Part shown: one piece after another, positions 8,438-8,578 of the stretch
Numbering within the stretch: position 1 is the stretch's first letter
Layout: every line of letters begins with the position of its first letter
Assembly: GCA_948485625.1 (NCBI GenBank)
Contig: CAOMRW010000010.1
Coordinates: 25-64,024, forward strand
Reading direction: 5' to 3'
Origin: an uncultured Clostridia bacterium
GTDB taxonomy: Bacteria; Bacillota; Clostridia; TANB77; CAG-508
Length of the DNA stretch: 64,000 nucleotides
The notes under the pieces: model-generated
The model's database searches: none
Seen by the model: the letters and a program-made list of their open reading frames with translations, nothing else
What the model was told of the DNA's origin: nothing
Made by a program: the position numbers and the translations under genes

Positions 8438-8578
8438 AAAAAATAGGGATAAGTGGGGATAAGGGGCCAGGTCTTTAATCCCCATTATATAAAAATAAAT
8501 TTTAAAATATATAATATAATTTAATATATAATGGGGATTAAAGACCTGGCCCCTTATCCCCACTTATCCCTATTTTTC
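8438..8578. repeat. Very long perfect inverted repeat (about 54-bp arms, about 33-nt pure A/T loop) between the LPXTG-protein gene and the sortase gene
   Basis: The left arm aaaaatagggataagtggggataaggggccaggtctttaatccccattatata (about 8438-8491) is the exact reverse complement of about 8525-8578. The arms are far more GC-rich than their surroundings and contain an internal GGGGAT...ATCCCC sub-hairpin and a repeated GGGATAAG motif. Confidence 0.9.

Follow-up and report, generated by a model that had tools for sequence, protein, structure and literature searches.

A long perfect hairpin between a scaffoldin gene and a sortase gene of an uncultured Clostridia bacterium is very probably one copy of a REPIN/TIRtron-type palindromic mobile element

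Background

Is a long perfect palindrome located between two genes of one cluster a device of those genes, or one of many elements that are dispersed in the genome? This question is raised by a hairpin found between a scaffoldin gene and a sortase gene in the window, by which we mean the whole stretch of 64,000 nt of DNA from an uncultured Clostridia bacterium that was analysed. An earlier note on this DNA had proposed that the structure could set differential expression of the neighbouring genes, act as an RNase III processing site, or be the footprint or end of a mobile or foldback element.

Results and discussion

The hairpin at the scaffoldin-sortase junction

The gene upstream of the hairpin (8604..9626, minus strand) encodes a protein of 340 aa with a cohesin domain and an LPXTG anchor, and its TAA stop codon (8606-8604) is located 26 nt before the stem. 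The downstream gene (7800..8414, minus strand) encodes a sortase of 204 aa, with an AGGA ribosome-binding site at 8425-8422 and an ATG at 8414-8412, 24 nt after the stem. Beyond the sortase gene, also on the minus strand, are genes for a dockerin/Big_2/SH3 protein, a cadherin-like protein and a dockerin/transglutaminase-like protein. The genes flanking the hairpin are all on the minus strand, so that its description as lying between LPXTG scaffoldin and sortase genes, inside a co-directional cluster, holds. The spacer between the cohesin/LPXTG gene and the sortase gene measures 189 nt.

The core of the palindrome consists of two arms of 53 nt, located at 8439-8491 and 8525-8577, which are 100% complementary both by direct reading and by a script check of the window sequence. 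Perfect arms of about 54 bp had been claimed, of which 53 bp are perfect; at the 54th pair (8438/8578) the plus strand has an A.C mismatch, which in the minus-strand RNA becomes a G.U wobble. The arms enclose a loop of 33 nt (8492..8524) composed of A and T only, as had been noted, and this oriented spacer has homologues in two other copies described below. When the palindrome is extended with mismatches allowed, it reaches from 8431 to 8585 including its A-rich and T-rich feet, with arms of 74 nt that are 88% complementary. The G+C content of the genome is 26.2%, close to the earlier figure of about 25%.

Each arm has an internal organisation of its own. The left arm contains a REP-like unit of 34 nt, GTGGGGATAAGGGGCCAGGTCTTTAATCCCCATT (8453..8486, plus strand), with its own sub-hairpin, in which GGGGAT at 8455-8460 pairs with ATCCCC at 8478-8483, and with the core GGGGCCAGGTC at 8463-8473. 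The repeat search located the right unit, an inverted copy of the left one, at 8530..8563 (minus strand). Outside the left unit lies a partial unit, GGGATAAG (8446..8453, plus strand), mirrored at 8563-8570, and together with GGGGATAAG it forms the direct repeat GGGATAAG(T)GGGGATAAG at 8446-8453 and 8455-8463, which is mirrored in the right arm. Both the sub-hairpin and the direct repeat had been reported for each arm, and both were recovered in each. The copies at C5:52157, C9:21751 and C16:16700 have longer partial units on the outside, again mirrored in the two arms. On the sense strand of the genes, the stem is followed immediately by a T/U-rich tract, TTTTTTCCCTTTTTTT (8428..8443, minus strand), which is a candidate terminator tract.

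The RNA of the palindrome region folds on the sense (minus) strand with -108.5 kcal/mol (z = -14.3), compared with a mean of -42.2 (sd 4.6) for dinucleotide shuffles, none of which (0 of 200) folds as well. A search of Rfam rendered no family match for the hairpin, and the sub-threshold matches were to eukaryotic miRNA-precursor models, as expected of any long hairpin.

A family of hairpin doublets in the genome

A check for other copies in the genome had been proposed, and it was carried out in the assembly of 1.89 Mb in 89 contigs. BLAST of the hairpin against its own genome rendered 124 matches. The module that is repeated is a 34-nt unit, GTGG[G/T]GATAGGGGGCCAGGTCTTAAATCCCCATT, with GGGGCCAGGTC as its invariant core; the unit has 100 matches at 57 loci, and the 11-nt core is present in 98 exact copies. 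Allowing up to one mismatch in the core, there are 111 matches at 64 loci, 43 of which are inverted doublets (a plus unit followed by a minus unit). Altogether the family comprises about 100 units at about 60 extragenic loci, which answers the question about other copies in the affirmative, and its 16-mers, with 59 copies, are the most frequent G+C-containing 16-mers in the genome.

The canonical doublet spans about 105-125 nt and is built of AAAGGGGCTGTAAAAAGTCTRTRG, a unit, a spacer, an inverted unit and CYAYAGACTTTTTACAGCCCCTTT. Across the doublets, the perfect stem has a median length of 37 bp, so that the window copy, with 53 bp, is among the three longest; those exceeding it are C16:16700-16839 (70-bp arms) and C13:23469-23581 (54 bp). 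The former is a loop-less, perfect palindrome of 140 nt, in which an inner doublet is nested in an older, more diverged outer one.

Canonical doublets at separate loci differ by 0-1 nt over 80 nt, several of them being identical, which indicates that copying was recent. In the window copy, which is of a long-spacer subtype, the 33-nt spacer shares about 26 of 33 nt (about 80%) with that of C5:52166-52286, and it also matches, in reverse orientation and again at about 26 of 33 nt, the spacer of C1:131701-131811. That an oriented spacer is common to three copies indicates that the whole doublet, spacer included, was copied as a unit. Between the arms of a single locus the mean difference is 1.8 nt in 35, versus 4.6 nt in 35 between loci, and the variants are mirrored in both arms.

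The sequence in front of the units was also compared with the tag of classical REPs. GTAG stands exactly before 6 of 99 units and RTRG before 37 of 99, which departs from the classical GTAG-tagged pattern. No CGTC tag was found in the repeat family of the window hairpin; CGTC-like loops are present in other hairpin families of the same genome.

Seven contig ends of the assembly fall inside the repeat family (C3-5', C5-3', C8-3', C11-5', C23-3', C30-5' and C36-3'). One nested doublet has its two halves at the 3' end of C8 and at the 5' end of C3, and these contigs are therefore probably adjacent.

The placement of the copies was determined with a simple ORF-based gene call (1781 genes, 85% coding). 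Among the 49 loci located between two called genes, 32 lie in co-directional and 17 in convergent gaps, and none lies between divergent genes, yet the divergent type makes up 15.5% of all intergenic gaps. Seven copies that appeared to be inside ORFs were dismissed, since these were ORFs of 75-91 aa made by the repeat itself, or chance matches to the core with one mismatch; the true copies are all extragenic. Target-site duplications at the family copies were not found above the level of a random control.

A RAYT-class gene bracketed by units of the family

A search for the Y1_Tnp domain (PF01797) detected nine genes in the genome, two identical IS200-type genes and seven diverged genes encoding proteins of about 250 aa. 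The two former are tnpA genes (160 aa; NF033573, 135 bits) located about 1 kb apart in inverted orientation, at C6:32235-32717 (plus) and C6:33662-34144 (minus). The seven RAYT-like genes are located at C6:8551-9420, C6:71032-71781, C11:4621-5382, C15:21791-22561, C7:16351-17106, C5:32431-33185 and C20:31169-31888. One of them, the single-copy gene at C5:32431-33185 (minus strand), has on either side a single unit of the family of the window hairpin, the two being inverted relative to each other; the repeat search placed them at 32397-32427 (plus) and 33317-33348 (minus). These flanking units represent a minor GATT variant, whose 16-mer GATTGGGGGCCAGGTC has 13 copies as against 59 for the dominant GATA variant.

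The C5 protein has 251 aa, with NHTH as HUH motif and YIHFNP (Y---NP) as tyrosine motif. All seven paralogues carry NH-x-H (HUH) and an invariant YIH-x-NP, which align with HmH and YIYINP of 4ER8; TnpA-REP-like proteins of class 2 are recognised by Y---NP (PMC6006769). Against NCBIfam, the best match of the C5 protein is REP_Tyr_transpos, with 76.1 bits, the IS200 model giving 17.5 bits. Since the scores of the C5 protein (76.1 bits) and of one paralogue (67.3 bits) lie under the equivalog cut-off of NF047646 (80 bits), these proteins are to be taken as RAYT-class relatives and not as equivalogs of the curated family.

Structural comparisons place the C5 protein with the same group. A PDB search with the single C5 protein rendered no match. 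The profile of the seven paralogues, searched against the PDB, matched 4ER8, the E. coli TnpA-REP, with E = 1e-7, and the ISDra2 transposase with E = 0.8. The AlphaFold2 model of the C5 protein (mean pLDDT 85.3) likewise matched the fold of 4ER8 best (E = 4e-7, TM 0.75 on the target), about 1000-fold better than the folds of IS200/IS605 transposases. Residues about 165-249 of the model form an extra all-helical C-terminal region, for which weak matches to sigma-factor FliA/WhiG models were obtained (E about 2e-3).

The paralogues are 27-41% identical to the C5 protein, and the genome contains no near-identical duplicates. Each of the other six genes is bracketed by its own distinct pair of inverted small hairpins, mostly with loops of the GGGGAC type, and the 16-mers flanking the RAYT-like genes have 4-30 copies each in the genome.

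Distribution of the family among relatives

With up to one mismatch, the 19-nt motif GGGGCCAGGTCTTWAATCC has 94 matches in the window genome and none when reversed as a control. No match was found in 40 relatives, including 24 same-genus species, nor in the JGI metagenome contigs. Across 400 genomes of the order, only two contain the motif, with 1-2 matches each, and 2 is the maximum per genome among about 425 related genomes. The repeat family is essentially confined to the window species.

The two genomes with matches are the same-genus genomes G327 (one singlet and one doublet; L049, L050) and G414 (one singlet; L051), whose units, such as CGGGATTGGGGGACAGGTCTTTAATCCCG, are all of a closely related kind, with no transposase gene adjoining them within the 3-kb stretches considered. 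These units may be remnants or seeds of the family. Homologues of the C5 protein in relatives have at most 55% identity, and they are likewise bracketed by inverted hairpin units of the same design. The closest of them (55%, from a MAG named 'Clostridia bacterium') has the loop GGGTCCAGGAC, which is also the one most similar to GGGGCCAGGTC, so that protein and repeat appear to change together.

The gene order cohesin/LPXTG, sortase and a dockerin protein of 755 aa is kept in seven same-genus relatives. Their cohesin-sortase spacers range from 6 to 323 nt and are unrelated in sequence; the element is present in none of the seven, and some stem-loop is present in five. Given that these relatives keep the gene order without the element, the idea that the hairpin is a feature purpose-built for the operon is unsupported. 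The orthologous spacer of one of the relatives (G005; L023, C5:72471-72524) holds two direct units of another repeat, AAGKGCCGGTTCTT, which has 92 matches in the G005 genome, often with a period of 41 nt, and none in the window genome. The occurrence of unrelated, species-specific repeats in the G005 and window spacers indicates that this junction was colonised independently by lineage-specific repeats.

In the search for a second strain, exact look-ups gave a single further contig, broken within the right arm, and two metagenome scans gave none. A pair of filled and empty sites was not found either: the nearest relatives, with a protein identity of about 60%, are too diverged for it, and the searches gave no other strain.

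Identity of the hairpin and a proposed mechanism

The results described above lead us to consider it very probable that the hairpin is one copy of a non-autonomous palindromic mobile element of the REPIN/TIRtron type. Of the options proposed before, the mobile one is thereby supported, given the occurrence of the family at about 60 loci and of a RAYT-class gene bracketed by the same units; the hairpin would not be a footprint or an end of such an element, since it has the structure of a complete copy.

A possible course of events can be proposed by homology with E. coli TnpA-REP and with IS200/IS605. The transposase would recognise the small hairpin of the unit in single-stranded DNA, cut beside it, and copy or move the doublet to other intergenic spacers without target duplications. 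Copies would persist only downstream of genes, where promoters are left unbroken. The window copy would have landed in this way in the 189-nt spacer between the scaffoldin gene and the sortase gene, whose transcript would then form a stem of 53 bp followed by a U-rich tract. Such a hairpin would most likely act as a partial intrinsic terminator, as a 3'-end stabiliser or RNase III target, or as a combination of these, so that the scaffoldin message would be favoured over that of the sortase gene and of the dockerin-protein genes behind it.

Several observations bear on this last point. On the sense strand the stem is followed by U6CCCU7 and then by the AGGA ribosome-binding site, and the 24 nt between the foot of the stem and the sortase ATG leave no room for a promoter there. 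A promoter located in the loop was considered for the sortase gene and dropped, the promoter scan having rendered no promoter-like site there at or above 9/12. A perfect sigma-70 consensus, TTGACA-16 nt-TATAAT, is present at 8821-8848 of the window (minus strand), within the 3' part of the cohesin gene; it points toward the hairpin and the sortase gene, and it is unconserved in relatives. There are 86 perfect sites of this kind in the genome, only 10 of them within ORFs.

With respect to termination, a stem and U6CCCU7 are both present, and stem and loop are far outside the size usual for intrinsic terminators. The simple terminator scan found nothing at the hairpin, because it accepts only loops of 3-8 nt. 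A gene for RNase III is present in the genome. In the whole family, T-rich tails are slightly commoner on the sides of the doublets that face the 3' end of a gene (5.9 versus 4.9 T per 14 nt), which indicates that termination is not a uniform property of the repeats and that any such role belongs to individual copies. It is plausible that the hairpin acts at this junction as a terminator or as an RNase III site as a side-effect of its presence. Judging from the sequence, the element would be a partial terminator, a processing or stabilising structure, or both, lowering the expression of the sortase gene and of those downstream relative to that of the scaffoldin gene. As for the narrower statement that the hairpin measurably attenuates or processes the transcript, we give it even chances.

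Alternative explanations for the hairpin

It might be thought that the hairpin arose for the scaffoldin-sortase operon as a dedicated regulatory structure of this locus, either an attenuator or an RNase III site. Its location within a co-directional cluster, the U-tract that follows the stem, and the stem-loops of other sequence that relatives have at the same junction would all fit a device of this kind, but the same type of sequence occurs at about 60 unrelated loci, the element is missing from the orthologous spacer of the seven relatives, and its motif has at most 2 matches in any of about 425 related genomes, which makes the proposal highly improbable. Equally small is the probability that we assign to a classical MITE, that is, a deletion derivative of an insertion sequence with a DDE transposase, mobilised via its terminal inverted repeats. 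In favour of a MITE, the element is short, palindromic, dispersed and non-coding, and it breaks contigs. However, target-site duplications did not exceed the control, the only gene found to be bracketed by the units is of the Y1/HUH type, and the unit forms by itself a hairpin of the kind required by Y1 enzymes. Moreover, none of the true copies adjoins a gene for a DDE transposase; the one seeming exception, next to an IS30-like gene (C66), is a chance match with one mismatch to the 11-nt core. The least probable of all is a fold-back chimera produced during assembly. This could be suspected in a fragmented, metagenome-type assembly of 89 contigs in which seven contig ends fall inside the family, but about 40 other loci have the same architecture, and an independent Logan contig of run SRR10593864 starts inside the right arm and runs identically into the sortase gene. 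The flanks are, in addition, different genes in an order kept by the seven relatives, so that the contig is not folded back.

A different kind of alternative accepts the same identity for the hairpin and denies it a role: it would be a neutral passenger in a spacer that tolerates it, having no meaningful effect on the expression of the scaffoldin and sortase genes. The occupation of about 60 unrelated intergenic spacers and the weak link of T-rich tails with gene 3' ends are what would be expected of a passenger, and relatives L027 and L025 cope with hairpin-free spacers of 6-11 nt. On the other side, an RNA stem of 53 bp with U6CCCU7, 24 nt before a start codon, is unlikely to be invisible to RNA polymerase, RNase III and exonucleases, and five of the seven relatives have some stem-loop in the same spacer. 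We consider neutrality to be possible but somewhat unlikely. The identification of the hairpin as a REPIN/TIRtron-type copy is shared by both readings of its effect.

Significance

If the hairpin is a REPIN/TIRtron-type element, a striking structure turns out to be an ordinary genomic parasite or commensal and no bespoke regulator, which guards against over-reading this cellulosome-like operon. The analysis also adds a case from uncultured gut Clostridia of low G+C content in which a RAYT-class gene is accompanied by amplified hairpin doublets of its own, the REPIN literature compared here being centred on Proteobacteria and Cyanobacteria. The long perfect stems constitute a natural test set for effects on termination and RNase III processing in Firmicutes, and likewise for the tolerance of 140-bp palindromes in DNA and for the breaks of metagenome assemblies at repeats.

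A broader hypothesis, which we regard as speculative and on the whole unlikely, is that a clostridial lineage of long, HTH-tailed RAYT-like enzymes (of the TIRYT or subclass 2.1 type, see below, for which REP-like hairpins have so far not been reported and flanking repeats are few) actively builds REPIN populations, seven such systems coexisting in this genome of 1.9 Mb, and that their hairpins have been repeatedly recruited to the scaffoldin-sortase junction as termination or processing modules. The basis for the recruitment is that two species of the genus have unrelated, species-specific repeat families in the orthologous spacer.

Comparison with known systems

The REP/BIME sequences of E. 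coli are weak terminators and stabilisers of mRNA 3' ends. The window hairpin would resemble them in being a palindromic repeat between co-transcribed genes that, as predicted from its sequence, is able to set the ratio of upstream to downstream message. It differs from them in having a stem several times longer, which makes cleavage by RNase III a realistic additional fate.

The likeness to the REPIN-RAYT systems of Pseudomonas fluorescens and E. coli (Bertels and Rainey 2011, PMC3116915) is more extensive. In both cases two inverted REP-like units and a spacer make up a long hairpin (43 inverted doublets here), the copies are extragenic, dispersed and over-represented, doublets outnumber singlets and would be what replicates, and mirrored (compensated) differences keep the stem. 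Both also have a single-copy Y1/HUH gene bracketed by the same units, here of the RAYT class, and several systems in one genome, each with its own repeat. The features described for RAYT or TnpA-REP proteins, namely HUH and Y---NP motifs, a sequence and fold nearer to TnpA-REP than to the TnpA of IS200/IS605, and a low copy number, were all found. In contrast to the systems of PMC3116915, the host is here an uncultured Clostridia bacterium of low G+C content and not a proteobacterium. The unit does not carry GTAG, the tag required by E. coli TnpA-REP, and the protein, with 251 aa, is of greater length and is extended at its C terminus by a helical region. The stems, too, are far longer and more nearly perfect (37 bp as the median; 53 bp in the window copy), and the population is smaller, with about 100 units.

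With respect to the RAYT groups, only Groups 2 and 3 have been described to have highly abundant flanking 16-mers (Bertels et al. 2017, PMC5581495), the values being 57 for the REP-associated Group 2 and about 12 for Group 1, which has been reported in Clostridia. The count of 59 for the 16-mers of our family is near that of Group 2 and above that of Group 1, and the count for the exact 16-mer flanking the C5 gene is 13.

TIRtrons, described by Di Nocera et al. (2013, PMC3733652), are associated with TIRYTs, which are RAYT-like proteins of greater length, and the repeats that flank them are in some cases amplified as dimers. The system described here shares with them a RAYT-like gene with Y---NP and moderately abundant repeat families organised as dimers. 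Its extra C-terminal region may be HTH-like, and its flanking inverted repeats have a G-rich motif, of which GGGGCCAG fits the consensus GGGG[AT][CG]A[CG] at 7 of 8 positions. TIRYTs have been equated with subclass 2.1 of TnpA-REP by Quentin et al. (2018, PMC6006769), who found no REP-like structures beside the genes of that subclass; in this respect our system is different, its flanking repeats being small hairpins. It is probable that the TIRtron/TIRYT class is equivalent to TnpA-REP subclass 2.1, and its equivalence to RAYT Group 1 is possible. By its described features, the family of the window hairpin appears to sit closer to that class than to the classical, GTAG-tagged REPs.
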